From Laetmonice hystrix (Eukaryota), in the NCBI GenBank assembly GCA_965235115.1, contig OZ249436.1:36582001-36646000 (forward strand): 64,000 nt of DNA. Direction: 5' to 3'. The notes beneath the pieces were generated by a model. That model was given only the letters and a program-made list of their open reading frames with translations. It ran no database searches and was not told the origin of the DNA. Numbering within the stretch: position 1 is the stretch's first letter; each line of letters starts with the position of its first letter. The translations under genes were made by a program, and so were the position numbers. This document shows, in pieces, positions 19,973-48,933 of this stretch.

Positions 19973-22021
19973 CACTGGCTACACACTGATCATCGTAACG
20001 CGCGTTACGCTGATCCAAGATGGAGGAAGGCAGGTCTCGCTTCAACTAAAACTAGGCGTATTTCAAGCAGTTCCGTGTCTCTGATTCATCTGTAAGACGT
20101 CAGAGTTGTTTATTGTAATGGTGGCATCATGTTTGGTGAACCTCGGCGCCTGAGATTGCCTAGAAATCTCAAAAATCGCTCCGAAAATTTTCGCTGTGAT
20201 ACCCGTAACGCGGACAAGCATGTTGACAAATGATACCCGTAACGCGAATTATTGATACCCGTAACGCGACTCATTGCTGGTTAGCCTGCCATTCACTCGT
20301 AAGCTGTACTGCCTTTATTCTTCGTCTTTCAAGTAGAAAAACCATTCTCACCAGTTTTCGTTTGAAGGGAATTTAATTGTTTGTGTTATTTGAAATCTTG
20401 TGCAGGTTGTGGCAGAGTTTTGACAGTTTAACTTCATCAAGTTCATGTAGAACGAAGTACGTTAGCGGTAGCCACGCTTGCAAACGCGAATACTTCCAGC
20501 CTGTGGCGAGTTCCACTGCCAAAATAAACCACCAAATTCGCCACGCCTGCAAATTCCAGCTGTCTCCAGTTTATAGCCCAGGTCCTCCCCCCCCCCCTCC
20601 CCCATGCACGCCTGATCCACCACTGACTGTGGTTGGAGCACGTGTGTCGGTGTGACATGTGGGTGGTCAGAGACCAGGGTGACCGACCCACCCGACCCGG
20701 TCTCTCCGCCAGGCCAGCCGCCCGTATGCGTCTGTTCCCCCTAGTCTACTACGGACTACCCCAGGTCAGGCCGGCCCTCAGTACTGGCCCGTCTCCCCGG
20801 CCTGGGTCCAGTCCATCTGGGGTGAGTTTATGACAGATGCCAGTCAGCCTGAGTAATACAGGCCTAGTTTAATCTATTCCGATTACCTGGCAGGCTGAGT
20901 GTACCAGGAGAGGACAGGCGTCACATGGCATGAAGGTGGGGAGGCAGCTCTGCCGCTCAGTACGGGGGTCGGGGGTGTGATGGGTGGGGGCTGTCAGGGG
21001 GGGATCGCTGTGATGAGAGGGTATTATAGCCTAGGTACCCGTCAATTTGGGCCAGGCCTCCTCTGAGGTGTAGGTGTACTGTACTGGATCCCAATATTCT
21101 TGCTGCTCAAGAGGGCCACTTGTGTAGAGTTATCCTCGAGATATAGGACAGCTTATTCCCCCAAAAACGTTCACTAGGCCTACACACATGCAGCTGGCAA
21201 ATGAAAGTACATGTACTTTATATTATACAGAGAAATTAAGACTGTATAATACATGTATAATGAACTCTGGTTACCTAAATAAAAAACATTAAAACAACTG
21301 TGGCTAATCCTTTTCCCTGTGGCTAGTTCTTTTCCTCAGTTGTTAGCCACTGTGGCTAATACCCAAAATTCACTAGCGTACTCCCTGTCGGAGGAGTCAG
21401 GGTGCTCTACCCCGGGGTACTGGGGAAGGACAAAGCATCTCGATCTCTCATGGTGCCTGCCAGGCATGTCTTAGATTCGTGACCCCGCCCTGGGGTCCAC
21501 ACACACTCTGTATGGTAACACTTATAGTATAGTATAGGTAGTATCACACACGCTGTTAATCCGGGCCCTATTATATACGTGTACCTCATGGTTTTACCTT
21601 CATACTGAAGTAGATAATGCTCATTACAAAGTTGAGATTCATTATCAGATCACGAGCCGATGTTGAAAGTCGTCTACTCGTCTGTAGACGTAAAAACCTT
21701 TAGGCTCAGTGAAAGGTTTAGGTGCCGCGTTACGCCTATCCTGTCACCAAATTAAACTTGCGTTACGGGGATCAGCGCTGCGCGTTACGGGTATCATCGC
21801 CAAATCTTCTGCGTCCATTTTCTCTTAATCTACGCCCGTCTAGGACCCCAAACTGAGACAAACGGCAGGCACACATTGTTATCATGATATTCAGATGTTG
21901 TTTTATGTTGTTGATGCACCGTAGCCCTTGTAACTTGAACAAAAACACGCGAAGCGAGCATCGGGATCGTCCATCTTGGATCAGCGTAACGCGCGTTACG
22001 ATGATCAGTGTGTAGCCAGTG
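19973..22021. mobile_element. 2,049-bp non-autonomous DNA transposon with 52-bp perfect TIRs (CACTGGC...) and 5-bp TSD; tentatively Transib/RAG-like (CMC group)
   Basis: 19973-20024 (cactggctacacactgatcatcgtaacgcgcgttacgctgatccaagatgga) is the exact reverse complement of 21970-22021. TCAGT is duplicated at 19968-19972 and 22022-22026. Subterminal tgatacccgtaacgcg repeats are mirrored at both ends. There is no transposase ORF. The element itself is well supported; the superfamily call is inference. Confidence 0.9.
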
Positions 22022-23814
22022 TCAGTGGCATCTTCATGTGAGATGAGCCAGTAAGTAGTATAAAAATTTGGAATTTGGTGTAGGATGATAATTGCAACTT
22101 GACAGGCCTATAACCTTTCGTTCGGTTCTTATATTCAAAAATATTTTTAGCTCAGATATTGTTAAGGCGCACCTTGTAGAAAACGTTGTGTGATCAGCCG
22201 CTGAATGTGCACATTGCACTTTCTGTCCACCCCACACAGAGTGTCTCTGTGCATGTAACAGACAGTAAAGACACGTCCGGAGGTTTCCTAGGCTAAGAGC
22301 AACTCCCAAAGGACCTATATTGATTGGCCTAGCGAGCCAAAGGCCACCGTAAGGTCTTCATGTAAGCCTAGCCATTCAGCCAACATCCCTGAGCTCGTCG
22401 GAATGAGACGCTTTGACAGAGGTCTTCGTCTTCACAACGGGGTGATTAGGTGTACGTAGACAAACGCCTCCAATTGGAATGGCTCTCAGGAAGTTACATT
22501 TCCATATGGCGGCAGCGACAGAAATGGAATCATTACCATGTAAACTGATGTCGTCGGTGTGACAATAGATGCCATTTACTCACGCAGGTTGTCATGAAAA
22601 TCAAGCACATTTTGTCCTTTAAGTAGTAAACCAGCTACGTCCATTTCAGACGGCGATCCGATTGTGTAAACAGGTTCGAATATTGATTCATGTGGACGAG
22701 GAAAATGTCATTGACGATCAATTGACGAGGGAGAATAGTTACACTGCACCAGAGAGAAATAGGAGCTTGACATGACGATGTGTAAGTGGGGATTGTGTAG
22801 CAAGGACAACAGACCGACTTCCATGTTGCCTCTGGAATATGATCCTGAACGGACTGATCGCTGTCGTGCATTGCATCTGAACATAAGAAAAATGGCGCCC
22901 CGCATACCGGCAACCACCCAATGTTAGCTTCCTGGATGTAGGAGACATTGTACGGTAGACTGAGGGTGGAGGGTGGGGGTGATTCTGTGATGGGGGGTAC
23001 CGACGACTCGGTCACCAAGTACCGGTTCCACTCGCCAACGTTATGTGCCAGCTGCTGTCCCATCAGGCCCATTGAGAACACGACCACAGAGCCACACTAA
23101 CCCACTGAAGCCATGTGTTCCAATAAGGATTCCTCTGATCTTCTCTCACTAACACTAATAGCTCACTAACTGTTTCCGGCAACCATATGTAGCTTCCAAC
23201 GCTCTCAAAGCGGTTTCTTACTTCAGTCATACTAGGATGGAATTTTGATGATGCCTGTTATTTACCAGTACTTCTCATTACCGGCGAGTTAGAACTTAAC
23301 CAGGCCCATCCAGCTGGCCCGTCTAAGGCCCGGCTGGGTGAGGCTGGGTGAGGCTTGGCGGCTGGAAGCAGTCAGCTACGCCACACCCCGGCCACACACT
23401 ATGTGGCTTGGTGGAATTGTACCACTACCACGGTGTAAATAGGACTGCGTTACGTGAGGCTAACTTCAGGTGGACTTAATAAAAGTAATCAATAAATGAA
23501 TAAATCTTTCCTGCTACCATGGCAACTAATGAAGAGTAGCCTTACATAAGCAGGTTGAAGAGGGTCATAGCTCAGAAATGATTGAAGACCCAGTTGGTCT
23601 CACTCAAAGTAAATAGTGTCTAAATTCACCTTGAGTGGCTTTGCTAAGTTTCACTGTAACTTGATTAGAAAATTTTGTTGAGGCTTCAGAATTTGCACCA
23701 GCGTGTTTCTAAAATCCCACTCTGTGCTCAGTCGCTCTACATGTAGTTGAGTTAAAGTGCTGGCAGCTGTTGTATTGATCGTGATCACCTGTGACGTATA
23801 AAAAAGGGGACGAG

Positions 23815-23925
23815 AGCTGTTTGTGAGGTCAGAAACAGCATGTTCTCTAACAGCTGTTTGTGAGGTCAGAAACAGCGTGTTCTCTGACAGCTGTTTGTGA
23901 GGTCAGAAACAGCATGTTCTCTAAC
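23815..23925. repeat. 3 x 37-bp tandem repeat, each unit with a gctgttt...aaacagc hairpin
   Basis: Units start at 23815, 23852 and 23889. Confidence 0.9.
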
Positions 23926-26900
23926 GATTGGACGAGTTGTTTGACCAGAAGGAGCATTCAACAGGCACATGACAAACGAAAAGAGCCCTTTTTAAAATTA
24001 TTTTTCTAAATATATATAAAACATGCAAGCCTGTAGGCTAGGTACTGTGGGTAAAAGATGGTTACACTTGAATGTCAGATGGTTACACATTGATTGTATG
24101 GTTGTTTAGAGAAGTTATTTTGACTAAAAGAAAAATTATTTTATGATAGGTAAATAATGGAAACCTTCCATTTGAAGAATTTTGTGCCAGCTGTGTGCCC
24201 TTGTATTGTCAAATGAAAAAAAAGGTTAATCCCAATAATGTCGATCTACAGAAGTGTCAAGAAAAAAAGCCGGAAATGTTGGTCAGAAAAAAGCGCCGGT
24301 AATGACGGTTCACGTTCCACAAACAGGAACCATTTCTTAGTATGATAGCTGTCACGACGATGTGCGTGCCCTCAAACCACTCAAACCGCCCACTGAATTC
24401 ATGAGGTTAACAAGAGGTTAGTCCTCCAGTTGTTTAATATAAAAAGTCACATAAATCTCTCGTGAATTCTTGTTATTATACATGTACCGGAAGAACACTG
24501 GTGTTTAGTTGGCAGTGGTGTTTGCTATGTTTTGACTTTTCGTCTGTCACAGCTGTGATCAGAGGTCCACTGCCGAGCTCTTTTGGCTTTTTTCCGTAAT
24601 TGTCATGATTTGCCGGTTTTATACACCAGACCCCGGCCTGCATATAGGCAACCTTTCCAATCATATCCAACAATAAAACACTTACTGTTGATTCATGGCT
24701 CCTGGTGGTCTATACCGGCTTTCCTAGAATTCTCGGCCATCAATGTGTAAGGCAACAAGACCCCCTGAGCTTTCCAAATTAAATGTACAACAGCGTGTCT
24801 GGCCACTGTGGGAAGCATGCCGAGGGTCCTGCTGAGGGTCGGCGCAGTATGGTATCGGCTATCTGCTCTTCCAACTGAGTTGGGACTCACCTATTTAACC
24901 ACAGTATCCCATTCTCTCATAACTCTGTGCCCTTATAGCCCACGCACCATCGGAACATGCTGCAATACAGTCAGGACGTCGGCACGGGCCTGTAGAATGT
25001 GTGTCTCCAATTACGACTGTTGAAGAACACGGCTAAATCACACGTTTGGTATTTTACTGCTTCATGTTGGTGCTTTAGTAGAAACTACTGCTGTACACTG
25101 TTTTCGTTGTATGTTGCAGTTTGTTCTACTCTTGCTACCATACTTGTCCTCCGATACAGTTAATGGTTCCAATCGTCGGACGATTGCCAGCTGAGAGGTG
25201 GTAGTACTTGTAGTGGGTTGCTTTCTTTATCTGGTTATCAGGTTTGAGCGCCGGAAGTGAAACATTGAGGTGCTTGAAATTCTCATCACGGAAAAGTCTG
25301 ATCTTGATTTCAGAAGATGTGTCTAGAGAACTACGAGCCGTTTTGAAAAATCCTCAGTTTGTGGCTCATGCAGTTAATAGGATTTTCGTGCACTGAAGGC
25401 ATTAATAATAAACCTTGCTTCTCCAAGGAATGCGAGGAATATTCGCCATGCTGTGCCCAGCCGTCCAAGTAACTATATGTTTCATGGTATGATATACTGA
25501 TGTTCAGGCCGACCGAGTCGAACGTGCGGTTTGATAAAAAATGCCTGGTTAAGTGATGGTGCACAGGGCACTGGTCCTGGTTCACCGTCAGGAGAAAGTT
25601 CACCAGAAGACTAGATCTGCTAGACCTATGCTGGTCGGCACTAGGGTCTCGCCTGCTATTGGATTAGCCATTTCTCTTTGCCAGTCAGCGGGGTTAACCT
25701 ATCATCATTCAGGCAATAGGTGTGCAGGGCGTGCCGGCGGCCTGGGTCGGCCGGGGGGGGGGGGGGGGGCAGGTGCAGTAGAATACCCTCGTTCCCTGAG
25801 GGAGACTTTAAGCTGACTTTGCCTACAGGCCCAGACGGGGGTTACAAATCATTGTAAACTGAATCTACTCTGGGCCTGGGGAGTCCTGAGGGATTGAAGG
25901 CATTTCATCCCATGCAGGTCAATACTGTGCCCTGAACAATATTAGTAAACGCAGAAGTGAATCCTAAAATTACGAATGAGAAATGTGCAATGAGACTGCT
26001 GTCCACTTGTTGTGTCCCCGTGTTTAATGCCCAGTAGTAATTTTGAAGTACGGGTGGGAGAGAGGGTACTGAAATATAGACTTTTATTATCTATTTTGTT
26101 TGGTTGAGTAATTGTCTCCACAAGTAAATTGAGATGATGTATTTAGACCAAGCCGGCTCGCCATATTGACAGGCAGACAAAGCATGTCAATCCGTAACTC
26201 CAATCTCTGTCGTTAGAACCTGACAGCGACCAGGTCATGTCATTATACAGCAGTGCAACCAGACGGTTAAAAGCATTCTACTAGGTTATTCACGTCGAAT
26301 GGCCGTCGTACAGGTACACGTTCCCACTCCGACAACAACCTCCATTCAGTAGCCTTTTCAATTTCCATAATTTCTACTCGCAGGAAATAAGAGCTTTGTT
26401 GGAATGGGTTGAGCTCAACTGAGATCGATGTTGGGATGTTGCATGTCTGCATGCCATTCTCACATTGGGCCGTCTGGCCACATCAAGGGGTCTACAGACT
26501 TCCTGCGAACATGTGTTTCTCAAAATGATCTGTTCAAGAGAAGCTCTCCTCAATCATCAGGATCAGGTACCTTCCACTCTCCACCATGTGGTCAATGTGC
26601 ACCTTGGCGCTACACGGGCAGCACATTTTCTCTGTCGTTTAACATCGTAAATCTTAAGTAAGCCTTAAAGGGATATCGGACTGCGAGGGCAGACAAGGAG
26701 AGAGAAAAACAGATTGTTCCACTTACACTGCGACTGAAGACGTTAATAGGTTATTTTACCCCGACTCTCTGAAACTGGAGGTTCTGTTTTAAGTGTTCGT
26801 ACCCGAGACATAAACGAAAAACAAATTAGGGTTGTCTGAGTGTGTAACTTGGCCGCACAAGTTCCCATCAGAGAAGTCTCTGGTTTGATGGGGCCTATTT

Positions 26901-29900
26901 TGTGGAGGCCGCAGCTTATCCAGGATGATGCATTGGAACATGGGAATGGCGTGGATTATCAAAGTGCAGAACGGTATGGATGACCCCGGCAGAGATAATC
27001 CCCAGCCAGATTCCCTGTCGACCCCTGATAATCCAATCCAGGATTTAGCGCTAAGAATAATGGCGCTGGTTTTGGCGTTGGTGAATTTAACCTAGCATTG
27101 ATGGTGCTAGGCCGGCGCCGCACGTCACAAAATGTGGGAAGGTTTTGCTATTGAACGTCTAAAATTATTGATAACAAACTTTCATCTTAGATCTTTGGTT
27201 TGCGTCCAGGTGGGAAGGAATAAAATATTTGCCAATATCGCCCCCTGTGGGAGGCAGTAAAGGGAAGGGAGGGACATGTGTGCGGATCCAAAAAAAATAT
27301 TTAAAAAAATTAAAAAATTAAAAACCAACATTATATATATAATTGTCAAAGCTGCGGGAGGGTAGCGTTAATCAGTGTTTAGCAGGAATTTAGCATCAGA
27401 TAGCCAAATGGGGTTCCAGTGGCTCTAACAGCTCCTACTCGCCAAAACGTTGGAATTGAAAGTATCTGTAGAATGCAGGACCCACGTAAACTACCACTAT
27501 TCTGACATACATTGTATATTCAAAACAACGGACTATTTCTCTAATGAGTAACACTGTAGCACAGTCACCGGCAGGGACAATTTAATTCTCAATGTCTCCA
27601 TAATTAATAGCACATTCTCACATTGTCACCGCGTAGTCTGAGACGACATGAATGTGGATGTTTTGGATGTCGTAGTGGTAGTCTCAGAGTGGGGAAGGTG
27701 AACTCCCGCGGCCATGTTGCGTGGACCGCATTTCATATTGAGAGGATCTGGCGCTGGGGATGATCGGGGTGCCCACCAACATCATGAATTAGTATGAGCC
27801 TGATTACACGGACAGAATAATTACTCTGTCTCCAAACAAGGCCCCGCCAAACGGCCGTCCGCTTGGAGAGCAGTGAGGGACCATTACAACATTGTCCGTA
27901 TTACGTTCGACATGGCCAACACGCCCGGCGCGGCTTGTGTTGAAGCTGTACCTCAGACTCATTGGTCTTGGTACAACAATCTAACTGGGACTTGGGAATA
28001 ACAGACTCATTTTGTATTTACCAGTGATTTAGTTCGTGTTGGCGGCTTTTCTTTTTACAACAGAACCTAATGAACGTGTAGATATTGGATAACCTAGGCA
28101 TTGGCTTTCAATTCTGGTGTCGGATTATTGTGTTTAGATGGGAACAAGGAAAGCCACTCTACTGCAGCAAGCCAGCTGTAGGGTTCATTGATAGAGACAC
28201 ATGCGGCAGCAGGCAAAGCATATGCTAAACCATCTGGGGTCCATAATTTATGTTGAGGGGGATGCAAAAAGGGAGGGGAAGAAAGAAATAGTAGGAAGAT
28301 GATTAAGTATAAGAGTCAGATCCGTGTGTATTTACTCGTTGAGGGAGAACTAATTCCTCAGTCATGTTGGGCTAATGCTTCTGGTGTAAGGGAAAAAACC
28401 AAAGACGTTTTTACAGTGTATAGCACGATGTTTCTCAGCTTTTGATGATAAATCCAGTAAAAACTTAAGCGTTACCCCTGGAAAAATGCTATCCGTCGAG
28501 GCAGTTCGGGCTGTTTGCCAATGGCTGCGGTTCACACTCAGACAATTCAACCAGAAGTCCACGTACAGCGCCGATTGGAAACAAGACACTTACCAACTAG
28601 AAGCATGAGGTTTTTTTCACCTGTGGTTAATTTTAATTGCAGGATAGAGAAGCTGTACCTATATACCACCTGCGGTCGTCGAGTAACCACCATCAGGTAA
28701 TCGCCTCACCTTAAGGTCTTCCAACGCCAGTTAGGCGGCAGCCAGTTGGCAACTCGCTCAGTGTGACCGTGCTTATGTGCCCAATGTGCCTGGCCTTATG
28801 TTCTCTCAGTCCCAGTGTGGATCTTTCTTCAGTTTTTCGCAAGCTCTCCTGGACCCATCACTTTGGTTAAGTAATAGCAGTGAGGGGAGGGCAAGGTCAG
28901 AGTTGAATGTGGGTCTGATATCAAGTAGCTCAGAGACGTAGAAACGAATCCCGACCAGACCACCTAAGATCTTGGTATCTAACAAAAATGGCCCACGTAC
29001 ACCAGGGGGATAAAAATTTAGTCTCGGCCCCCCAAACTGATGTAAAATAGTCACAAGGAGATATATTGCCGGATTCGCCAGCCTGGCTTGAATCGTTTTA
29101 CATTAGACTTCAATCAGAGATAGCTCAAGCTGCTTTGTTGCACTGACCCCGGTTTGTGAGCAGCATGATGATCTGGTCGATGCTTTGATTGGGGGACCTA
29201 GAACATGGTGAGTGAGGGTTCAGCTGGCCGGGGTAGTTGGGAGGTGTGGGTGGGTAGGTGGGTGGGGTGGGGGGCTCGGAGTGACACCCTCAGGGGGTAC
29301 GATAGGAGAACCCCTCGAGATGACGGGGGCCAGGTCAGGGAGGGCTGGACTGGAGCGGCGGCCGACCCTCAGCCAGCAATCAGTGCCCTCAAATCCGGTA
29401 GCTCCTTATCTCTCGCCGGTTGGTCCTTTATTTGGCTTACCCGGGCTCTGGCCTTCTCTCTCTGTGGCCGCCAGTCCGAGTCTGGCCATGATGAGCACGC
29501 CACCCTCCTTCAGATGGGATCACCTGACACACAGATCTGTCTGCAACAGCTGAGCTGGGCGCAGAAATTGGGTTAGACTTTACCTTCCTACTCTCAGATG
29601 TGATGTGCTTGCTATTCTATCGTTTGTATTTGGTTGAAAGGCAGACGCGCCTGTTATCTCAAAGGCTTCATGTTACTCTGTATATCTGCGGCGATCTGTC
29701 CACTAGCTCTTCATTCACTACTGTGCAGATAGCTGCCAGCATGAGTTTTACATCTAGTATCTTTTTCTCCGTGTTATTCGCCAAGGAGCCATACTGTGTG
29801 TGTTGTGGCCTCTCGATTAGAGATGGACCGATTGGTCAGCTTGCAACGTCCAGATGCCCTCTTCTCAGACCGGTTATTTAAAAAGAGAATTAAATACCTA

Positions 29901-30397
29901 CTCTTCAACATTTGTCTCAATTAAGGCAAACTGTAGCTCCTGGGGACTTTTAGGCGACATGATCAGCGTCTAATACCTGTGTGACAGCACACTGCACACA
30001 GATATGAATTATGATGCATGTGTACATGTGTTGGTTTTTTTGTTGGTAATCCTGGTGTGGAAAAAACATTTTCGTTGTAAATTATATGTATGAAAACCTC
30101 ATCAGTCGAGATGGCTGGCGGGTTGATTTGTTTAAAATGATGTTAGCTGTCATGACTCAACGTGTATTGGGAGCAGTGTCCTTCCTATTTCAGCATTAAC
30201 CGGTATAAATTGAGTTGGATATATGTTTCCCTCTGAGAAAAGCCAGACATGTTTTAATTTTGTTTATTGGATTGCACCAGACAAGAAAGTCTGTGCTGTA
30301 TAAGAAGAATGTATTTTATACCGAGTAACTAGACAATGCTTGATGAAAACGTGATGGCACATAGATACTAAATGTTATGTTTGTTTTGTGTTTGCAG

Positions 30398-30436
30398 GTA
30401 GGTAACCCAAGTTTCCCGTCAGCACAGTCCCGATCG
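30398..30436 (+). other. Candidate 39-nt cassette / recursive-splicing (RS) exon of the furin gene (VGNPSFPSAQSRS)
   Basis: Branch-like tactaaa at 30366-30372, U-rich tract and tttgcag acceptor ending at 30397, 39 nt without a stop in phase 0, and a consensus donor gtaagt at 30437. The exon itself begins with gtaggt. No transcript evidence is available. Confidence 0.55.
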
Positions 30437-33400
30437 GTAAGTCCTAGACCTCACTGAATGTTTTTGTCAAACCTTTACCTTTATTAAACCAATGAGTCTT
30501 TATTTCCAGGATTGCACAGATTCACATGTTCATTTATTCATGTTAACTGGTAACAATCATGTACCATAATTCACCAACATAAGCATACGGAAGTGCCTAA
30601 CATCATTTTCTTTAACACAAGAAATTAAGATTGATTATACCTATAGGGGATTGCCAGTTGTAGCCGAGAGAATGCAGAGATAAAGCCAGTAGAGGAAGAC
30701 CTCTGATTGCTGGAAATTCTCTCCTGGTTATATGTCAATAACACAATCAGAATCTGAACGCCAAGTCGGTGGGATACCACTCAACTCTTGGCCTCACCAG
30801 TTATCTCGCTATGCCACGGGTTGGAATGTAGGTTGTGGTATCTGGCTCACTATCCTTCCTGGAATAGACCAAGTTTGAACCTTTGGATTTTGAGGACAGC
30901 TTTCTCAAAGAAAGAGTTGAAATCCGTGCCTGGTGTGGTCCTTTGGAGTGGCTGAACTAATAAACAAGCAGACAGCGTGACAAGGCGGTTAACTGACAGA
31001 GATTCCCTGAGGTAGAAACTGATGCCGACTTATCCCGGCTTCCCACGAATCTATCCCCTCTGGGATCTACCAGATACCAGCAACATTCTGAAGCTAACTT
31101 TCAGTGCTGATCGTTCTTAGAAATACTACTACTACCAGCCAGGCTGGCGGCCCAGGACTAACAGCAGATGGAGACAACCGTACGGACAGGCATGCAGGAG
31201 ACACGCAGCTCAGAGTCCAGCAGCATCCTCAATTTGTTCAACATGTTAAGTTCCCCCTCTCCCCACCTGAGGCTTCGTCCTAAAGATATCTTCGAAAAGA
31301 AAAGTTATTGCTGAATCCATTCTGTTGACTGTGTGAGCGACCATTAAAGAAGGCAAACACTCGGCCACTTTGGGTTGTTGGTCTAAGCTTTTAGAATTGT
31401 GTGATTTGACTTAGACGGATTCTTCATATGCATAGCTGTGAGAGAGATTGCAGTGATCAGGAAGTAAGGGGTGAGGTTTAGGTAGAGTTGTACTGATCCG
31501 AAATATTGACACCTCTTAGTTAAGTATGGTGACACCAGTCTCGGCCCCCACTCTCTACAAGTGTTTACTGAATATAAGTGGCAGAGGTATGCGAGTGGTA
31601 GGCACGTTTGGAATAATGTTGGTCCCACACACAATCGTCGCTGTATTTATCCAGTGCACAACGGTTTTAAGTTCAACACTAGACCTGTTGAGAAATATTC
31701 TTTGTATGGGTACTCGTTGACAACCAGGTGAAGTGGTAGTATTTTTGAAGTAAACAATGCGGGTTCTTGGCTCTCTTCGCTCGTGGACTTGAAGACGACG
31801 GTTACAGCTAGGGAAGTCGATTGCAATAAATATTTCATGGTATGGCTTACCAAAAGGTCATACATGTCTTAGCTAATATGCAAATTCTTACAAGGAAAGT
31901 ATTCGGAATAAATGCTATAAGTCATAAATTCGCACACTCAGAATGGTGCTGCCGCCGTTGTTGGCCTCAAACATTTTGGAAGAATTTTTCACGCCAAAGT
32001 TTCCACAATATTGCTCCTTGATAAGTGAGTTTCTTAATGCAATCGGACGGACCTCTCCATAAAACATTACTCTACCAAGTCCTACCACCAGGCTGACTTT
32101 GCAGCGACTTTTAGCGGTAAATCATATTGTCACATTTCTGTGAAGTGCGTGAGGGACAGTTGGCGGGGTCAGGGTTGGCGGTGTGCTGGCAGAATGCTTG
32201 CCATCTGCGGCTGCCGACCCTGGCTGGCTGCATGGCCGCCCGCTCGCCTGCTCCAGGGAAAGTAACCGGCCTGAGCCGCCGCCAACACGGCCGCCAGACT
32301 CTCTGATCAGTACGGTAGAAAATGTCGTGTGGATTTGACTGCCATGTTGAATGGGAAGATGAAAAGGTGCATTGAATGAGCCGAGCCGCCAGTATGTGGA
32401 AGAGGTGGGCAAAGGTGAGGAGAAGACCAAGGATGAGGAGGCCAGGAGGGATGCTGCCCTCTGTACCTCACTGCTACCAGATGGTGGACAGTCAGGACGG
32501 AGACGCTGGTTAAATCCAGACCCCCCCCCCCCACACCCTTCCCAATCTTTCTTTTGCATGGCCATACTGTAAAGGATACAGTGCCGCAGATGGCCATGGC
32601 AGCGTTTTGAGCCCGACCACATCCCCTGACTTGAAACCATCCGAAGGAAACCAGCACTAAGTGCTGTTCTATAGCAGGTCGGCCGTTTCCTGGAATAAGA
32701 AACGGTGGGGTTATATACAGTAAAGGCATCGTTGTAATCTATCCTCTCTTCATGCAACGATGCTACTTCAGTGTCGTCTCGTGGATTTATCATTAGGTCG
32801 TTTGATAAAAAATCGCCCCAAAGCTAGCTGAACGGCTGTTAATGGTGTTCGTTAACAGAAGTGTCAGACAGTGTTACGCTGTTGACCAGTGATGCGGTTG
32901 ATAATGAAGTAACTGTCTCAATGTGTTTTACACGTTAGCCGTGTTCAACCCACTACAGTCGACCTGACTCAATCGAGACGTTAGCTGTCTGGGAGTTCTT
33001 ACACCGCGCTGTCATTTTGCCAGCAGTTGAGTGACCAGTTTTCTTGTACAGTGCCTGTCGAAGTGTTAATGGACGGCCAGTCAACAATAGTTGTCCTCCC
33101 AGAACAAGGCTGAATGGCTGAAAGCAGGGGACGGAGATCACATCCTAAGTAGCACTTCTGACAAGTCGAAAAACCTTTTGACAAATTGGTTGACAGGAGA
33201 TGGTTTAAAGAAATGGGAAGGGGCAAAGGGATGGAATGGAGAGTGCTGCAGCCATTAACCAGGGCTGAACCAGGCTACCTAAAGCTTATCTCTGGGCAAG
33301 AGAAATGGCCCGCCGGAAGAGCAGATCTGTGGATTCAAAGTGATTGTTGATAGGATCAGATGGCATCATCTTATAATTCCGAATCCACTCTCTTGGTTTC

Positions 33401-36400
33401 TGACAAATAAAAGCCGGCTTTCATGGCTCTGGTGTTAAAATGAGTGCGATTATAGTTATCTTTTGATTAATTTTCGCTGTAAACGGACAGTGTTTATCAG
33501 TAGCAGGGGCACCCCCCCCCCCCCTCCCTTCACAATATCGGCCCTTGTTTTGTTAATGAGGTTGGTTGATTTCTGACAACTCCATACGATGCTGGTATTG
33601 CTGCCGACTCCCTGAAAATTAAAGATGCTATCTGTACTGGTAAGGGCTAACAATTATACTTATAGCGCTGCGGGTCCATTCAAGGGTCTTGCAATCGGAG
33701 ACCATAATTTGGGAGAAGAGATGATTTGTTATTGATTCACTTCAGGGTAGATAAAACGGCTGTTTTGCAGTTCAGAAGTCTAGGCGGATGTGTTTCTGTC
33801 TTAAAGCAAGTTGGAGTTTTGAACAGGTGATTCTGCTTCCAATTTCGATTAAAAGTGAACAGGAGAGCAAGCCTCGGTCATTCTGACTAACAACCAAAGG
33901 GCTTCACAGTAATATACCATTCATTGTGAATTCTTCATTCACCAATCATGTGGTCTTCGTACAATGAATCAATATGTTATACATTAATAAACTGGTACTT
34001 ATTATCCAGTTGTCACCCATCTCTTAAGATAAAGAGAAGAAAGGTTTTAGAAGGTAGATTGGGTCACGGTTATACCAAATATAGACGTCAGCTCTGTTGC
34101 TAAACACAAAATATTATTGAAATGAAAATAGCAGCTTTGTTGTGCAGCAGTGTAGCAAGCGTCGGAAGTGCGCAAGTAACCATTTATAAATGCACGGTAT
34201 TTGTAACACTGCTGATATAGAATATCCACTTTCGACCAGGTATAACGGAAATCGTTGTCAGCTTTACCTAGGCTCCATTTACTGGATGTCTGTGCTCCTA
34301 TTACTGAACCACATTATAAGTCTGGCTGTCTGTCATACTGGGAGAAGAAGATGAAAGATGTATCTAAAGTGTCGTAGAGGAAGGGTAAGCCAAGGTTATT
34401 TGCTGGGTGTGGTTTCTGTCTTCATTTATAAGGGCACAGGATGCTTACCCGATGGAACTTTGACGTCTTCCCTCGAAATCCCAAGTGGACATTATGGAGG
34501 AAATCCGACTGATCCTTCTGTTCTTCCGCCTTCTCCTGTTCTTCAGACGACTCCTGCCTGCCCCCCCCGTACCCACAATCACAGCTGGCTACCATAGACC
34601 CGTCTCTAGTGAGTTAATTTGGGCTCCAAGCGTAGGCGCGCCGCGTTGTCATCTCTGATCATCTTTATTGGCATAGCGATGGAAGCGTGTCTGATCATGT
34701 AGGCAGGGGGTGTCGGAACAGTCGGAGGCTTAATGTGTCGTGGATACATCTCTGTGGTTGCCGCTAGATCTTATTGAGACATGGAAATGATAAAAGCTTG
34801 GGCTTTATTTCCAACGTCACCTCTTCCGGAGAGGCCTTTTGAAGGATGTAATGAATATGAATCACCCAGAAGACTTTGGGATTGTTGGAGCGACAATGTC
34901 TGCTTGATTTGATGGGAGTTGTAAACCTGATGGCCTGAAAGACGAGAGTAAAGTCTGTGTGCAGACTTCCAGAGAATAAGCACGAAAAATTGTAACGGAG
35001 ATCACGGAGGAAACATCTAAAGGATAAACGTGTTTGAAGTTGGTGATAGGGGAATGAGATACAAGAGGGCCGATCAAACCTCGACCAATCAAAATCCCTG
35101 TGAGAAATGCCTTTGGACATGTTGCCTACATTGAGCAGCCATTTGTATGTTACGCTACGTATCTATTTCCGACAAATTTTTAAAATGATCCTGTTGAAGT
35201 GACTTTTCGTCGGTGACTCGGGATATGTGTAAGAAGGATAGAAGTTGACTTTTTTGTCTCTTGTATAAATTTCTATTTGTACCTGTTCCAGTTGTCATGT
35301 CAGAGATAACGATTTTCTTGACTTGTCTCACTATACAATGAGGAGGACGTTCAGCCATATATCGGGACCCCGTCTTGTTATTGGTTATCTGAGCCTTCCT
35401 AACTCCGACGATATGAGAGACATATTCGTAGACTAGCCGTGGTTAGTGGGGGCTGGCCAGGACTTGGCCCAGCCGAAAACGCTTTGAGAAAGTTATACGG
35501 ACAGGTCGTTCATGCAACCAAAGCAGCTGGAATTATTGATTACATGTGTCTTATGGTTTTGATAACTTTGAGTCCCTTAACCTGCCATGGTGACTAGAAT
35601 CCGAACTCAGAATGTTTTGTCAGGAGGTCAGGGAGAATTTGAAAGAACGTTGATGAACAAGTCTCTATATTTTTTACAGGTCGGTCCTGAACTATCGCCA
35701 GTGGTTTTCTGCCACTTGAAGTCCATATCCTGCTCCTTGTCCGATACTATTTCTGGACTAGTGCGACTTGGACGCAGTGAGTAATAAACCCAAAACACTG
35801 ACTTCTGCAATGTTGCCTACTTCAGAATCCAATAACCCTCCCACCACTTGGCGGCAATCGTAGGTGCTTTCAACTCCCCGCTGCCAATCAGGGGGACCTG
35901 CAGACTCTGGCTAAGTGCTTTGTTTGCCATCGGTTCAATCGTGATAAGAGTCGACACGGATAAGGTGCAAAAGGTCCCTCCGAAACCGGCGCTGTGAATG
36001 TGGTTGCCATTTTACAGCTTCATTTCCTGGCCGGTTTGTGACCAGCGCGGTGGCTGGCCGTCTTGCCAATGCCAAATGAGCGTTTTTTTGTTGTGCATTG
36101 TCGTCTGAACGAGATGGAGATGTTGATGCCAAATGAGCTCTTTTTGGTGTCGCCTGTCTGGAGGGGAGATGTGGATGTCCGAACCATCTTGACAGGACGG
36201 AGTGGAGAGAGCAGTGGATAGCAGCAGCCCTTGGGAAACAGGGCAGTCAGCTTACAAGTCTTTGAACGGCTTGTTGCTTGACATCCAGGGCTTTTATTCT
36301 TGCTCTACCTTCTAATGCCTGGCGTTGGGTTCAATACTTTCCCTCTGCCACTATGGTATGGAGATGTATGCCTAGGGGGGAGAACCCCCCCCCCAAGTAA

Positions 36401-37207
36401 TTTCACATGATTATTTTTAAGACGTATCAAATAGGCCTAGAAGTAAATAACAAATTATATGAAGCCTTGATAAAATAAATCACCTTTTTAGACACGCACT
36501 GTTTTCCCAGGGAGTTGCAGAATCTAGCTGGCAGAAGTGTCCTGTAGATTATTATATTGAGAAGATAGATCGACTGCATTTGGTTGGGTTACTCGTAGGA
36601 ATAGAGTGGTCAGGTTTATAGTGTCTCAGCATCGATCAGTTGTCTGGGGTGTCTTTGTCTACGTTGATGCAAGCAGCGCCGGTCTGGAGATTGTTGTAGT
36701 GTGGTTCCATTCTGTTTAGGCTCAGAATCCATTATACCGCTCTCTGTAATATACTTGGCATGCGACCAGTTCGTAGTACTCTTGAGCCTCCCTATATAAA
36801 ATTGCTGTGTGAGGAGGACCAGCCAACTAGGAATGAACGGTAGGACATAAGGGGATAGGGCGGGATCTGGGCGAACCGCAAGCGGGCCAACGTCCCAGGC
36901 GGGCCGGGGGATTGGGCGTGGCGTTAGATCCCGCCCCGTGGGGGTCGGGTCGGGTCGGGGTAGATGAGAGTTTGAGTGGCGGGGTGGGAGCTGACCGAGA
37001 GGTCAACACCCCGGCGGACCACCCTCTGGCTGTAGACTCAGACTGAGCAGTCTTCAACCACCTCTACCCTACTCCAACCGGTAGGCAGGCTACACGATTA
37101 TTGAGGCAGTCAGTGTCTGGGCCGGAGCCAAGGCCACCTCCAGCCAGACTACAACTGTCGCTATACACCTCCCGGTCAGATTTCTAATCCTGTAATCGAG
37201 ATGTTCA

Positions 37208-39400
37208 CCGCATGGAACCATCTTCTTATAGTCATCTACAGCCAACCAAAGCTGGCGGCATCTTCTGTCTACAGCAGGTACTTCCAGTCTCCTCGCAGAC
37301 CGCATGGAACCATCTTCTTATAGTCATCTATAGCCAACCAAAGCTGGCGGCATCTTCTGTCTACAGTAGGTACTTCCAGTCTCCTCACAGACCGCATGGA
37401 ACCATCTTCTTATAGTCATCTATAGCCAACCAAAGCTGGCGGCATCTTCTGTCTACAGTAGGTACTTCCAGTCTCCTCACAGACCGCATGGAACCATCTT
37501 CTTATAGTCATCTACAGCCAACCAAAGCTGGCGGGATCTTCTGTCTACAGCAGGTACTTCAGTCTCCTCGCAGACCGCATGGAACCATCTTCTTATAGTC
37601 ATCTATAGCCAACCAAAGCTGGCGGCATCTTCTGTCTACAGCAGGTACTTCCAGTCTCCTTGCAGACCGCATGGAACCATCTTCTTATAGTCATCTATAG
37701 CCAACCAAAGCTGGCGGCATCTTCTGTCTACAGTAGGTACTTCCAGTCTCCTCACAGACCGCATGGAACCATCTTCTTATAGTCATCTATAGCCAACCAA
37801 AGCTGGCGGCATCTTCTGTCTACAGTAGGTACTTCCAGTCTCCTCACAGACCGCATGGAACCATCTTCTTATAGTCATCTACAGCCAACCAAAGCTGGCG
37901 GGATCTTCTGTCTACAGCAGGTACTTCCAATCTCCTCGCAGACCGCATGGAACCATTTTCTTATAGTCATCTACAGCCAACCAAAGCTGGCGGGATCTTC
38001 TGTCTACAGTAGGTACTTCCAGTCTCCTCGCAGACCGCATGGAACCGTCTTCTTATAGTCATCTACAGCCAACCAAAGCTGGCGGCATCTTACTGTCTAC
38101 AGCAGGTACTTCCAGTCTCCTCGCAGACCGCATGGAACCATCTTGTTATAGTCATCTACAGCCAACCAAAGCTGGCGGCATCTTACTGTCTACAGCAGGT
38201 ACTTCCAGTCTCCTCACAGACCGCATGGAACCATCTTCTTATAGTCATCTATAGCCAACCAAAGCTGGCGGCATCTTACTGTCTACAGCAGGTACTTCCA
38301 GTCTCCTCACAGACCGCATGGAACCATCTTCTTATAGTCATCTATAGCCAACCAAAGCTGGCGGCATCTTTCTGTCTACAGCAGGTACTTCCAGTCTCCT
38401 CGCAGACCGCATGGAACCATCTTCTTATAGTCATCTACAGCCAACCAAAGCTGGCGGCATCTTCTGTCTACAGCGGGTACTTCCAGTCTCCATGCAGACC
38501 GCATGGAACCATCTTCTTATAGTCATCTACAGCCAACCAAAGCTGGCGGGATCTTCTGTCTACAGCAGGTACTTCCAGTCTCCTCGCAGACCGCATGGAA
38601 CCATCTTCTTATAGTCATCTATAGCCAACCAAAGCTGGCGGCATCTTCTGTCTACAGTAGGTACTTCCAGTCTCCTCGCAGACTGCATGGAACCATCTTC
38701 TTATAGTCATCTACAGCCAACCAAAGCTGGCGGCATCTTCTGTCTACAGTAGGTACTTCCAGTCTCCTCGCAGACTGCATGGAACCATCTTCTTATAGTC
38801 ATCTACAGCCAACCAAAGCTGGCGGCATCTTCTGTCTACAGTAGGTACTTCAGTCTCCTTGCAGACCGCATGGAACCATCTTCTTATAGTCATCTATAGC
38901 CAACCAAAGCTGGCGGCATCTTCTGTCTACAGCAGGTACTTCCAGTCTCCTCGCAGACCGCATGGAACCATCTTCTTATAGTCATCTATAGCCAACCAAA
39001 GCTGGCGGCATCTTACTGTCTACAGCAGGTACTTCCAGTCTCCTCGCAGACCGCATGGAACCATCTTCTTATAGTCATCTACAGCCAACCAAAGCTGGCG
39101 GCATCTTCTGTCTACAGCAGGTACTTCCAGTCTCCTCACAGACCGCATGGAACCATCTTCTTATAGTCATCTACAGCCAACCAAAGCTGGCGGCATCTTC
39201 TGTCTACAGCAGGTACTTCCAGTCTCCTCGCAGACTGCATGGAACCATCTTCTTATAGTCATCTACAGCCAACCAAAGATGGCGGCATCTTCTGTCTACA
39301 GCAGGTACTTCCAGTCTCCTCGCAGACCGCATGGAACCATCTTCTTATAGTCATCTACAGCCAACCAAAGCTGGCGGCAGGAACTTCCGGTCTCCTCGCA
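37208..39400. repeat. Minisatellite with 92-bp unit (ccgcatggaaccatcttcttatagtcatctacagccaaccaaagctggcggcatcttctgtctacagcaggtacttccagtctcctcgcaga), ~24 highly similar copies
   Basis: Direct periodicity (ORF starts at 38411/38503 and 39055/39147 are 92 nt apart). The last copy has an internal deletion. Confidence 0.97.
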
Positions 39401-41153
39401 GTATCGTCCTGCTGAAGGAAGAATCGTCAGCTTCAAACATACTGGCCTTTTTAAAGAAATCTCCAAAACGAGAGAATGTCTGTTGTGTTGATTCCGTTCG
39501 AAATCCACGGAAATAGCAGCAGGCGGGTTCTATTGATTTTCGTTGTTGGCGTGTTATTGATGTAAACATGTTGTCGGGGATGGCCAATTGGATGATTGGC
39601 ACCAGTCAATACCTGTCAGGTTCAACCAGGCGTGTTCTCTCAGGCAGAGAGGTATTACCGTCCCCAGGTCACAGATTGTTTATTGGTTGGTGTAATTACC
39701 AAAGTAAAATAAATGTCATGCAGTAGTCATTGGTTGATCATATTCACCTTACGTTATGATAAAGGATTCTAACGAAAATATATTAAAGGGTAGAGCAGCA
39801 TTATCAGAGGATTGGGTTATTGAAATGTTCTATATGTTCACACCTCTGTCTCCCCACAGGAGGGGCTAAGAGACAAACCTAACCAAGGCTTATGGCACAT
39901 TATTGACTTAGCAGCTGATGAATACCCAGCTATGAGCCAAAGGCATTGCTGATAGGCAAAGCCTGGAACCTTTTGTATAAACCGGGGCTTGGAGAGGGTT
40001 GTTTCATGTAGATGGCAGTGCTGTCGAGTAGAGAGAAGTATGGTTATCCGATGGGCACATTATGCTGGTCTGCAGTGGGCACGACATTCAAGCACTGCCG
40101 ACAAGGGTGGTAGACTGCGTGGCCTGTACAGAAGCCTTGTTTTTTTGTGAACCTGCCAAGTTCTATGGGCAGATAAAGGGGCGCTTTTTGTGACGCAGTA
40201 TTGATTCGAGTTTGATGTGTTGACGGCGAGAAAATGCCCGGTGAACTATTCTATAATGTCTACCTAACACTGTAGCGTGACATACAGCAAACGGTATTGG
40301 ATTGATTGAGAATGGAACTGTATTTTGTTCTAATTATAACGGTAAATCTCAGAATTGCAGGGATGTTCAGAGTTGTAGACCAACATTGATTGTCGGTGTC
40401 GTATAAAACATGAGGGAAGTTATATTGCTGAACCCTTGTGCATTCTTTCCGTGATCTTCAGGAATAAACACCCTAGCTTTCAAACGCAAAATTCCAATAA
40501 AATAGAATTGTTACATGAATCCCCCCCCCCCAAAAAAAAAATGTCAGTGCCAGCGTGGTTTTCTGCAGGCCCGTTTTGGGCCGCAAAGTCTTTTTTTTAA
40601 TTTATTTTTTCAAAATGCTCAACCCTAGGTCCCCCCCCAAGACTTTCACCCCCCCCCCCCCCAAGTGAAATCCTCCAGAAAGCCTGGCCACTCAGAACAA
40701 ATATTTGATCGACATATTTAGGGTATGGATGATAACATTGCTGTACCCTTGCGTCGTCTTCGTGTAGTGACAGTGTTCTGATTGAAAACAGGTACACGTT
40801 TAATGATGCGGTCTCGGTAGTCACAGTTATTCTGAAAGGAAAAGTTTCCTTTAGACCTGAGGAGGTTTTGTCCTGGAGGAGGATTATGGACGTTGGAGAC
40901 TGCAAGGAACAATTGTCAATCCCAAGACAAACGATGGCAGTTACACATAAACAGGGCCCGTGGGTTCAACCTTTACGGTTCCTCCAGGTTAACGGAAACA
41001 GTGTTCTCAAATATCGCCGAGAAAGTTTACAGGTGAGCATTTTATCACCTGCACTTTGCTATCAGCTTCTAATAATTACATATGTACTTAGAGAATGACG
41101 TCGACTTACACTGGTAAGAGAGGTCTTAGCAAAGTGCACCATTCTAGCATTAA

Positions 41154-41242
41154 GTTTCTGTCGCCTGTATCAAAGATACCAGGTTTCTGTCGCCTGTATC
41201 AAAGATACCAGGTTTCTGTCGCCTGTATCAAGGATACCAGGT
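41154..41242. repeat. 3 x 29-bp tandem repeat (gtttctgtcgcctgtatcaaagataccag)
   Basis: Units start at 41154, 41183 and 41212. Confidence 0.9.
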
Positions 41243-43164
41243 GAGAGAGTTGGTATAGTTGTAATGGTAGGAGGCAGTGCACATGTAAAGGTGGCATTCT
41301 AGTAAAACGGTGAGGTTCGGGAGGCGTGTTATTTAAGCCCACTTTGTTCATTCCAGTGAAGATACATCTAAACCTCGTGCGGCAGTGCATATCTTCAATA
41401 AGATATATGGGAGGCAAAGCTGGTATTGTCACCACAGATGTCTGTCAGCATCTTCTCTTGGATTACAAAGACTTGTGGCTGGCATAACGTCTTTGTGTCA
41501 GGTCTCGGGGTGTCGGGTTGAGGTCAGGGTGGATGGTATATGTAACCTTCCCTTGAAGGTACCTCGCCTTGATAGTTTACGTCTCCTCACCATCACACTT
41601 CCCGGGATCTGTAAGAGGTGATGTCCTCAGTGGGGTTTGTTTCATCATTGCCTGCCGACAGACTACAAAGGACGGGTTCTTCCAGAGGCTGCTTGCTGGC
41701 GCTCCTCTGTTGGCCAGGTGAGGTCAACATGAAGCCACTGGAGGACTCCAGCGTGACATGACGAACAATCTCCGCTGACGAACGCCTCTTACAATTTTAC
41801 ATGTTGTCAACCTTTTTGACCACTGTCACAAAACGGACTCGTGTCTGGCAGAGCAGCTGTTAAACGGGAAGGTTGCCATTACCAAATAAACAGGGGAAAT
41901 AAAGCAAGGTTTGCTTTCCCTTCAATGAATGCTTAGTTGTTTTTGGTAGATTTGAATATGTTTGATTGAGGGCCTTTATATAGCACAGGATGTAAGGTAG
42001 CAGCATGTTCAGGATTGGGTGCTCGACCGTTCTCTTGACTGTACACCACATAGTGCTATCTATCTAGCCTAGAGGAAAGTAAAAGTTGCCACCACGTTCA
42101 GTAATGTAGTTACCCGTACCGAGGTCTGACGCTGTTCTAAGACGGGTCAGCCGGTGAACCTATCCAGACAAGCCGGCCAGCTGACCCCATGGGCCAGGCT
42201 GCGGCCCGGCTGGCAGCTGTGATGATGAAAAATGTATGCCTCTGTCGGTGTTTTAGTGGGGTCAGTATCAGCAGCCAGCCACAGGTGCACAGACTGTAGG
42301 GAATTAGCATTGAGTACCTGCCGCACCTCTCCCTAATATCAGCCACCGATCTGGTGTTGCCAAGGTGATAGGCTGCCCCTTCCCCCACCACCCTCGGCAA
42401 ACCCTACATCCCGCACCCAGCCTCCCAGGAACCCATATCTATAACCTTCACCTTCATCACTTCAAATGGCAAAGGCCACATACATGACCAACCGGGTTAT
42501 GACGCCCGGGGCCTGGGAACCAGCAGCCAAATGTCACCTTCACTGAGGGCCATGTCAACTTCACTGAGGGCCAGTGGGGATGGGGGTATGGGACCTTCAG
42601 GGTGTCGCCATGGGGGACCGGGAGGATGCTGCTTCCCACGATATGGTCGTTTGTGCCCCGTGTTAGTCCCTCACGCCGGCGTTTGCCTTTACATGGTGCG
42701 CACCACTTGAAGGAATAACCATCAGTCATTGATCCCTGATACCGTGCCATTTTCCATCCTTTCGGGTTGAAGGGCAAATGTAAGGGCTATCCGAAAAAAA
42801 TGTCCGGTGGTGTACGGTTAATAAGATTCGGCATTTCTAATGGGTTCCAGGTGACTTGACGCTGAGGTAAAAAGGAGAAAGTTGGTTGTTTTGACAGAAT
42901 ACAACCTCGGCCGTGGAGAGGACTTGTCCCTTTCCTCTGGTTGCATTCGTCAGTGTCAAAGGCAGGGCAGTGAAGAGTTTATAACTGACACCTTTCTTCA
43001 GGAACGTGCGTGTTGAACCGGCATAACGTGATATTGTTTTCATTGGTTGCTTGTCGGAAGTGTTAGTGGTTAGTGATCTATCATGGAGAACTATCAGTGG
43101 TTTATTGCTGCGGTCTTGGCCGTGTGAGTTCTATCAGAGGCGCATAGCTGTGGCTAGAGTCAGT

Positions 43165-44132
43165 GAAACCGAAGAAATATGTTCATCGGAGGTGTTGAAG
43201 CTTTGGTCAGGGCCTGTGTGAATAAAGGAGTTGTTGCTGTGGTCACAGTCGTTGACTGAAGGAATAGTTCCATCTGATGTGTGGTGGTCTGTGGTCAGGG
43301 TCTGTGGAAATATAGGAAGAGTTCCATCGGAGGTGTTGTAGCTGTAGTCAGGGTCTATGTGACTGAAGAAATGGTTCCATCGGAGGTGTTTAGCTGTGGT
43401 CAGGGTCTGTGTGACTGAAGAAATGGTTCCATCGGAGGTGTTTAGCTGTGGTCAGGGTCTGTGGGAATATAGGAAGAGTTCCATCGGAGGTGTTGTAGCT
43501 GTAGTCAGGGCCTGTGTGACTGAAGAAATGGTTCAATCGGAGGTGTTTAGCTGTGGTCAGGGTCTGTGTGACTGAAGAAATGGTTCCATCGGAGGTGTTG
43601 TAGCTCTAGTCAGGGCCTGTGACTTAAGAAATAGTTCCATCGGAGGTGTTGTAACTGTAGTCAGGGTCTGTGTGACTGAAGAAATGGTTCCATCGGAGGT
43701 GTTTAGCTGTGGTCAGGGTCTGTGTGACTGAAGAAATGGTTCCATCGGAGGTGTTGTAGCTCTAGTCGGGGCCTGTGACTTAAGAAATGGTTCCATCGGA
43801 GGTGTTGTAGCTGTGGTCAGGGTCTGTGTGACTGAAGAAATGGTTCCATGTGACTTAAGAAATGGTTCCATCGGAGGTGTTTAGCTGTGGTCAGGGTCTG
43901 TGTGACTGAAGAAATGGTTCCATCGGAGGTGTTGTAGCTGTGGTCAGGGTCTGTCTGACTGCGGAAATGGTTCCATCGGAGGTGTTGTAGTTGTAGTCAG
44001 GGCGTGTGTGACTGAAGAAATGGTTCCATCGGAGGTGTTATAGCTGTGGTCAGGGTCTGTGTGACTGAAGAAATGGTTCCATGTGACTTAAGAAATGGTT
44101 CCATCGAAGGTGTTGTAACTGTTGTCAGGGTC
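43165..44132. repeat. Minisatellite with ~51-53-bp unit (gtgactgaagaaatggttccatcggaggtgttgtagctgtggtcagggtctgt), ~18 copies
   Basis: Direct periodicity (ccatcggagg at 43324, 43377, 43429 and onward). The left edge is degenerate and two units are truncated. Confidence 0.95.
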
Positions 44133-48554: not shown

Positions 48555-48599
48555 TTCTTTTCCTTTTTTTTTTGCTGGTGCAGTCATATTGTAGTTTGA

Positions 48600-48850: not shown

Positions 48851-48933
48851 AGAACGAATGGGGAAATTCTTGTAACCCTCTGCTTTAGGAGTGTATTTTT
48901 GTAGATGACTAAACTCTTGTGTTTGCTTTCCAG

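Follow-up and report, generated by a model that had tools for sequence, protein, structure and literature searches.

Is the 43,930-nt intron of a lophotrochozoan furin gene removed in one piece, or is it taken out in two steps at an internal site where a strong acceptor is fused to a donor? The question is raised by position 30397/30398 of the window, the whole 64,000-nt stretch of Laetmonice hystrix DNA that was analysed. The initial annotation read this position as a recursive splice site (ratchet point) with an RS-exon. On the evidence assembled below, recursive splicing probably occurs at this furin site. Ratchet points in Drosophila introns are reportedly also the subject of a preprint by Duff et al. 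(10.1101/006163). As far as the available text of four published reports goes, recursive splicing has been demonstrated in flies and mammals and has been deduced from motif counts for other insects and the sea urchin (Joseph et al. 2021, PMC8605326; Pai et al. 2018, PMC6110457; Blazquez et al. 2018, PMC6224609; Shepard et al. 2009, PMC2773006). A literature search on recursive splicing in annelids, molluscs, other lophotrochozoans and planarians gave no relevant report among its top matches, with subscription journals largely outside its coverage. The mechanism as such is already known, and the furin site appears as a strong candidate example of it in a lophotrochozoan.

Host gene and long intron

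The furin exons were mapped over 124 kb and give a stop-free model of 527 aa. The model is 78% identical to its nearest protein (P0055) and 74-75% identical to named annelid and mollusc proteins. In a quick tree it falls inside the protostome Fur1/kpc-1 clade (SH-aLRT 97) and outside the mollusc and arthropod subclades. The host is read as a lophotrochozoan, probably an annelid. An S8 prodomain, an RxKR site and the S8 catalytic and P domains are all found, and by these domains and its grouping with protostome Fur1 the host gene is identified as a protostome Fur1/kpc-1 furin.

The upstream exon (4914..5003, plus strand) encodes the end of the prodomain, the RVKR cleavage motif and the start of the mature enzyme. 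It ends in ...WYL at the boundary CTG|gtaagt, and its CTG would complete the regenerated donor. The Pfam S8_pro-domain match to the region of this exon is weak and lies below the cut-off. The downstream exon (48934..49062, plus strand) holds the start of Peptidase_S8 with the DDG catalytic-Asp motif. The phase-0 intron between them (5004..48933, plus strand) is the longest among the 11 called furin introns and ends with a branch-like gactaaac, a tract and the terminal acceptor (48907..48933, plus strand, 12.3 bits). The initial annotation had expected the terminal branch near 48911; a branch-like motif does lie there, with 48912 being the likelier branch A.

Architecture of the candidate site

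The candidate site sits in sense in the middle of the intron, and its elements follow each other closely on the plus strand. A branch-like TACTAAA (30366..30372) can be read directly in the sequence and may act as the branch point; its putative branch A is 30371, 26 nt 5′ of the splice junction. The acceptor (30374..30397) is composed of a T/G tract (30374-30394) and a CAG (30395-30397). The zone between TACTAAA and the acceptor is free of AG, and the nearest upstream AG lies at -35. Directly behind the CAG, the ratchet-point donor GTAGGT (30398..30403), which would be regenerated upon joining to exon 4914-5003, opens the 39-nt RS-exon (30398..30436). The exon has a GC content of 56% compared to 32-37% in its flanks, is in frame and contains no stop. 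The donor of the exon, TCG|GTAAGT (30437..30442, 8.16 bits), lies at +39 from the junction. The features that mark a recursive site are found together here: a long intron read in sense, a strong acceptor with branch and tract, an AG directly before a GT, a regenerated donor of normal strength and a second donor within 100 nt.

The positions of TACTAAA, CAG|GTAGGT and GTAAGT and the spacing of 39 nt all agree with those first annotated. The two segments proposed there, 25,394 and 18,536 nt, were recomputed and add up to the intron between exons 4914-5003 and 48934-49062.

In runs X1 and X2 (one sample, contigs with DNA-like cover), the letters over the site are identical. The contig of run X3 (one sample) differs somewhere along its length, at positions that are not listed. 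None of the three runs shows a joint. A search for RNA runs with 29900-30900, an intronic stretch ill suited to finding mRNA, gave no match and carries no weight as evidence. With a polymorphism of about 1 difference per 100 nt, less than one difference is expected in 77 nt, and the comparison has no power as a test of constraint. RNA structure at the site does not exceed that of shuffles (z = 0.0).

Strength of the splice sites

Acceptor and donor matrices were trained on 25 introns from four convertase genes of the same genome (28 were called, and 3 doubtful ones were dropped). This is a small training set, and 11 of the 25 introns come from the furin gene itself, including the true ends of the 43,930-nt intron. 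On this scale, acceptor 30397 reaches 15.1 bits and ranks first among the 3,041 AGs of the intron, ahead of the acceptor at the intron's true end (12.3) and of every one of the 25 in the training set (maximum 14.4). The initial annotation had proposed that the exon ending in CTG regenerates the donor CTG|GTAGGT when joined to 30398; with 8.85 bits, this donor falls in the upper half of the 25 true donors, which range from 5.3 to 10.4. GTAGG begins 4 of the 25 training introns.

Acceptor and regenerated donor together amount to 23.9 bits; the runner-up on the sense strand has 16.9 and the highest-scoring antisense site 13.9. The lead over the next candidate is 7 bits; the initial annotation had described the site as the cleanest acceptor-donor pair it found in the intron. 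The same score was reached in none of 200 simulated introns from a block-local Markov model. Across the 124 kb around the furin gene the site is the sole one that scores at least 17, and the opposite strand has none. No such site was found in the other long introns of furin (20 and 16 kb), nor in the Fur2 paralogue, where the scan covered a 27-kb intron and a ~35-kb gap.

The two donors that would compete at the site are close in strength. As 9-mers, the ratchet donor scores 8.85 bits and the RS-exon donor 8.16 bits, on matrices derived from 25 introns. When the six intronic bases are taken alone, the scores are 7.7 versus 9.2 bits, and the RS-exon's own donor, a perfect GTAAGT, is the better match.

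A genome-wide class of acceptor-donor sites

The motif tract-CAG|GTA has 287 matches in the genome, 42 of which lie in one array. The form tract-CAG|GTAAGT accounts for 18 of the 287 (16 independent), compared to 2 of 277 (1 independent) when CAG is replaced with AAG (Fisher p=3.4e-4), a control that retains a good donor context and has a poor acceptor. Many of these 18 matches carry a second donor 35-58 nt downstream. The full-layout pattern, with a second donor 30-60 nt further on, was written after these 18 had been seen and was chosen to include the furin site. It yields 83 matches, 60 of which form one tandem array, leaving 23 independent sites. Three controls gave smaller numbers. The AAG acceptor has 7 matches, 4 of them independent (binomial p=0.0003 versus 23); a donor placed at 90-120 nt has 67 matches with 8 outside the array (p=0.011); and the non-donor exon start GTTRGA has 8 matches, 5 of them independent (p=0.0009). 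A wider pattern mostly gained repeat copies and was left out of the counts.

Positions -25 to -10 are free in the pattern, and the acceptor-tract score there is above 0 in 20 of the 23 sites. Its mean is 2.8 bits in the class versus -2.0 bits in 162 antisense background sites (p=1.5e-10). In 8 of the 23 members the number of exon nucleotides is divisible by 3, which is the expectation for random frame, and 17 of the 23 exons are richer in GC than their own flanks. The ratchet donor is GTAAGT in 20 of 23 members, making the furin GTAGGT atypical. The enrichment is carried by these GTAAGT sites, a point against the furin site. The motif tract-CAG|GTAGGT has 3 matches in the genome and is not enriched, base composition predicting about 4 by the present estimate. 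The two other GTAGGT members of the class have no tract. At the furin site, tract and branch-like motif reach well beyond the search pattern, unlike most control matches.

Several members lie in identifiable genes. In Pbx/exd, one site is found in sense in the 49-kb intron between two PBC-domain exons, with a frameshifting exon of 46 nt. A second gene, which its L27 match and the translations of adjacent exons suggest to be CASK, has three sites in sense in the 100-kb intron that follows the first L27 exon, dividing it into segments of about 23, 17, 38 and 22 kb. A fourth site is located in a further long stretch of the same gene. Over the 544 kb scanned, one strand carries 10 sites that score at least 17 and the opposite strand carries 0; the regions were partly pre-selected, 7 of the 10 sites being known when they were fetched, and the independent finds number 3. 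Of 16 loci, 14 have a positive GC skew on the upstream side and 11 on the downstream side, which leans weakly toward a sense orientation.

Taken together, the genome-wide class, the RS-exon layout and the strength of the splice sites argue for recursive splicing, and the reading of the initial annotation is supported in part.

The 39-nt exon and its protein loop

The 39-nt exon encodes 13 aa, VGNPSFPSAQSRS, which would extend the loop that links WYL to DMNV. The peptide may resemble the same loop of yeast Kex2, a likeness that is given no weight here. The chance that such an exon is both in frame and stop-free is about 0.2 (1/3 x 0.59). The loop has 6 residues if the exon is skipped and 19 if it is included. 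In 182 of 182 parsed proteins (of 208), WYL and the catalytic-Asp strand are 25-31 residues apart; skipping gives 26 and inclusion 39. A loop longer by 13 residues occurs in 0 of these 182 homologous proteins, and a Fur1-type homologue with an insert occurs in 0 of 54 parsed metagenome loci (of 80), where all loops have at most 11 residues. The homologue sets behind these counts are redundant, ranked in favour of insert-free sequences and devoid of close relatives, the nearest protein being 78% identical.

Long loops of divergent convertases were missed by automatic parsing and were found by eye. Inspection of 14 unparsed loci revealed 3 with loops of 17-23 residues, and their existence elsewhere suggests that the enzyme may tolerate the 13 additional residues. 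Two Ostrea isoforms, X1 and X2, were considered as an example of the insert and rejected, as their 13-residue difference falls elsewhere in the protein.

RS-exons of the cryptic type are typically, though not absolutely, out of frame or interrupted by a stop. The furin exon is in frame and free of stops and is therefore not assigned to the cryptic subclass. It shares the frame-preserving, stop-free character of the expressed type, represented by Ubx m1/m2, and partial Ubx-like inclusion of the 13-aa insert is plausible. According to the initial annotation, the intron could be removed without a trace in the mRNA. The two-step layout behind this claim holds, whereas its tracelessness is uncertain owing to the in-frame stop-free exon, the atypical GTAGGT and the near-equal donor scores, three features that had been overlooked.

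Proposed mechanism and alternatives

The splicing steps proposed here would follow the Drosophila and mammalian models, fitted to a layout and to statistics that were observed. The reaction would be of the exon-definition type. U2/U2AF at 30366-30397 and U1 at TCG|GTAAGT (30437) would define the 39-nt exon at a time when the last 18.5 kb of the intron have yet to be transcribed. Subsequently, exon 4914-5003 would be joined to 30398 with release of a 25,394-nt lariat, and the new junction would yield CTG|GTAGGT, a rival of the exon's own donor. The regenerated donor would mostly be joined to 48934, which would release 18,536 nt and leave WYL and DMNV connected by the canonical loop of 6 residues. 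A fraction of the transcripts may proceed via 30437 and give a furin with 13 extra loop residues. Such a leak through 30437 would keep the frame and be harmless, so that the ratchet donor could afford to be weaker. Recursive splicing in which the exon is mostly skipped comes close to an even chance, and recursive splicing with regulated inclusion is a lesser, somewhat doubtful prospect.

Regulated inclusion would make the furin exon an expressed RS-exon of the Ubx m1/m2 type. It would always be spliced first and then, in a tissue-specific manner, either retained or removed by re-splicing, giving isoforms with 6- and 19-residue loops shortly behind the N-terminus of the mature enzyme. This is a sub-case of the probable recursive splicing and, taken by itself, clearly less likely than not. 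The in-frame, stop-free exon with 56% GC fits it, as do a ratchet donor weaker than the class consensus next to a perfect GTAAGT exon donor and the 17-23-residue loops at the same position in 3 of the 14 inspected loci (divergent convertases). Its models, Ubx m1/m2, are frame-preserving RS-exons of 51 nt, according to the available text of PMC8605326. The absence of the insert from all 182 proteins and 54 metagenome loci, a biased sample, speaks against it; furthermore, 8 in-frame members of 23 correspond to chance, and GC enrichment is common in the class (17/23). In Drosophila, fewer than 50 expressed RS-exons stand against more than 500 cryptic ones, and in-frame conversion left skipping intact, as stated in the same available text (PMC8605326).

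An ordinary alternative cassette microexon is unlikely. It would be included through 30397 and 30437 or skipped in one step from 5003 to 48934, and GTAGGT would encode Val-Gly and never act as a donor. Exons that start with GT are indeed common (5 of the 25 used for training, exon 4914 with CAG|GTGAAA being one of them), but a full donor at the exon start is rare, and GTARG begins 0 of these 5. The missing genome-wide enrichment of the GTAGGT subclass is in keeping with a cassette, whereas the full layout has 23 sites and its counterpart with a non-donor exon start has 5. The frame, the lack of stops and the strong flanking sites would suit a cassette; the length of the exon, its mid-intron place and its very strong acceptor fit the ratchet class.

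Still another reading is an unused pseudo-exon, whose origin could be a motif formed by chance, an exon that has decayed or a splice junction copied by way of a repeat (a ‘mirage’); the intron would then be removed in one step. This is quite improbable. The site was chosen from many windows for its look, copied splice junctions do form arrays in the genome, one of which supplies 60 of the 83 layout matches, and the controls still yield 4-8 look-alikes per genome. Chance, however, is countered by the 0 of 200 simulations and by the tract and branch-like motif, which extend past the search pattern in a way that most control matches do not. A copied junction is countered by the genome search, in which the 301-nt region around the site is single-copy, by the absence of a tandem repeat at the site and by a comparison with the other fetched convertase junctions, which revealed no likeness beyond 20 nt. 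The site is thus neither a copy of these junctions nor a tandem or duplicated version of an exon-intron junction of its own gene.

Decoy-exon and cryptic-last-exon mechanisms reportedly exist. The acceptor is stronger than the true terminal acceptor, and a stop follows within 7 codons past 30436. In principle, the acceptor could have another use in which 30398 is never re-spliced, for instance to open an alternative last exon or to form a decoy exon through which excision of the long intron is modulated. Such uses are very improbable, as the consensus donor 39 nt downstream and the regenerated donor favour onward splicing.

Comparison with known recursive splicing

Recursive splicing at the furin site would resemble the Drosophila type in most of its layout. 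Ratchet points with cryptic RS-exons are described for kuz, Bx and Ubx-RP in the available text of PMC8605326. As in these, a long intron contains a strong acceptor fused to a donor and a short exon (about 50 nt in the fly) with a donor of its own; several sites spaced along giant introns, here in CASK, are a further likeness. The fly orthologues Fur1 and CASK are also recursive hosts, a match at the level of the gene that does not imply orthology of the introns. In the available part of PMC6110457, Drosophila Fur1 (FBgn0004509) is given 5 recursive sites of high confidence, which lie in two introns measuring 38.6 and 40.5 kb, and CASK (FBgn0013759) has two recursive rows, one of high confidence. 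None of the 5 fly Fur1 sites given there has GTAGG. The present case differs from Drosophila in its lophotrochozoan host, its GTAGGT ratchet donor, an exon that is in frame and a donor hierarchy that does not clearly promote skipping; the furin site is moreover known from its DNA letters alone.

The Ubx exons m1 and m2 provide the closest parallel to the furin exon, each being a short, frame-preserving exon of the coding region whose 5′ end regenerates a donor (PMC8605326, available text). They are ultraconserved and demonstrably included according to that text, in contrast to the furin exon, which is a genomic reading. With the vertebrate RS-exons, as the available text of PMC6224609 presents them, the furin site would share exon definition followed by competition between two donors on part-spliced RNA. 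Mammalian RS-exons are mostly annotated and included, and the exon junction complex represses them, as set out in that text. The random frame of the class resembles the cryptic type of the fly, unlike the mammalian RS-exons.

The available text of PMC2773006 reports an enrichment of the RP-site motif in long introns of four insects and the sea urchin, 4- to 22-fold in sense over antisense. The 10-to-0 count in the partly pre-selected 544 kb is a similar sense excess of acceptor|donor motifs. The 13 species named in that text include no annelid, mollusc or other lophotrochozoan, and no test for a downstream RS-exon donor appears in it.

With a statistically clear class of acceptor|donor…donor sites in its giant introns, the lophotrochozoan genome closes a taxonomic gap. 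The class allows the ancestral state to be asked for, which may have been fly-like (cryptic and skipped) or mammal-like (included and repressed by the exon junction complex). The furin site is an informative outlier in this regard; with an exon in frame and a ratchet donor of lesser strength, it lends itself to testing donor competition and bears on how cryptic RS-exons turn into coding exons. The most far-reaching proposal is twofold: that fly-type recursion via cryptic RS-exons works genome-wide in this lophotrochozoan and affects genes that it also affects in Drosophila (Fur1, CASK), and that the furin RS-exon has been recruited as a regulated, in-frame Ubx-like exon whose re-splicing sets the length of a catalytic-domain loop at either 6 or 19 residues. 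In this combined form it is distinctly doubtful. If it were true, recursion shared by flies and lophotrochozoans would suggest that the mechanism arose no later than in the ancestor of the protostomes.

The 23 pattern matches and 4 further high-scoring sites constitute a resource of candidates. The Hox cluster was considered as host of the site clusters on contig C10 and rejected, as the top-scoring homeodomain run lies on C21 and none was found at the C10 sites. Class sites also cluster at 8.0 Mb on C10.

Ratchet-like sites elsewhere in the genome

The layout pattern, which consists of a tract, an acceptor directly followed by a donor, and a second donor 30–60 nt farther on, matched 83 positions in the genome under study (G000). 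A single tandem array of ~37-nt units (G000:C12:26313499–26316374) accounts for 60 of these genome-wide matches. It carries CCCAG|GTAAGT in every unit and is a repeat of a copied splice junction.

Three ratchet-like sites lie inside the ~100-kb intron of a CASK-like gene (G000:C10:12541569–12641331; loci L083–L091 and L192–L193), at C10:12564315, C10:12581497, and C10:12619003, with exons of 37, 58, and 46 nt, respectively. A fourth is located farther along the gene (C10:12679035, L196; 57-nt exon). At G000:C8:4409224 (L101), a ratchet-like site divides the 49-kb intron in the PBC domain of Pbx/exd into about 17 and 32 kb; its 46-nt exon is frameshifting. Co-oriented sets also occur: four sites at G000:C10:8015450, 8018048, 8039946, and 8059301 (L094–L098), around which no exons were recognizable over 80 kb, and a pair at C30:6216791 and 6229267.

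Other acceptor-like sites and repeats in the furin introns

Within the 39-nt candidate RS-exon (window 30398–30436), a second AG is found four bases in, at 30401 (CAG GTAG|GTAACC; matrix score 7.4 bits). It is a candidate weaker tandem acceptor, whose use would yield a 35-nt frameshifting exon. The acceptor-like sites at 25119 and 48583 (13.1 and 12.6 bits) match the true terminal acceptor in strength, and their next bases are not GT. The same intron (5004–48933) harbors large minisatellite arrays (12321–13572, 14569–15449, 37207–39379, and 43226–44132), and donor-like CAGGTA words are present in its 32-nt and 92-nt minisatellite units. Its sense strand shows a G-over-C skew of about +0.1 in most 3-kb bins; such skew is a rough pointer to transcription direction in this genome. 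A later furin intron contains a long sense-strand ORF (62416–63999) that, by eye, reads like a retrotransposon reverse transcriptase/RNase H.

The loop after WYL in other convertases

In Ostrea edulis kpc-1, the annotated isoforms X5 (P0196) and X3 (P0202) leave out the entire exon after WYL, which bears the catalytic Asp motif. In molluscs, splicing at this junction may be variable. Three divergent convertases encoded on metagenome contigs (L163, L172, and L176) have loops of 17–23 residues at the candidate insert position.
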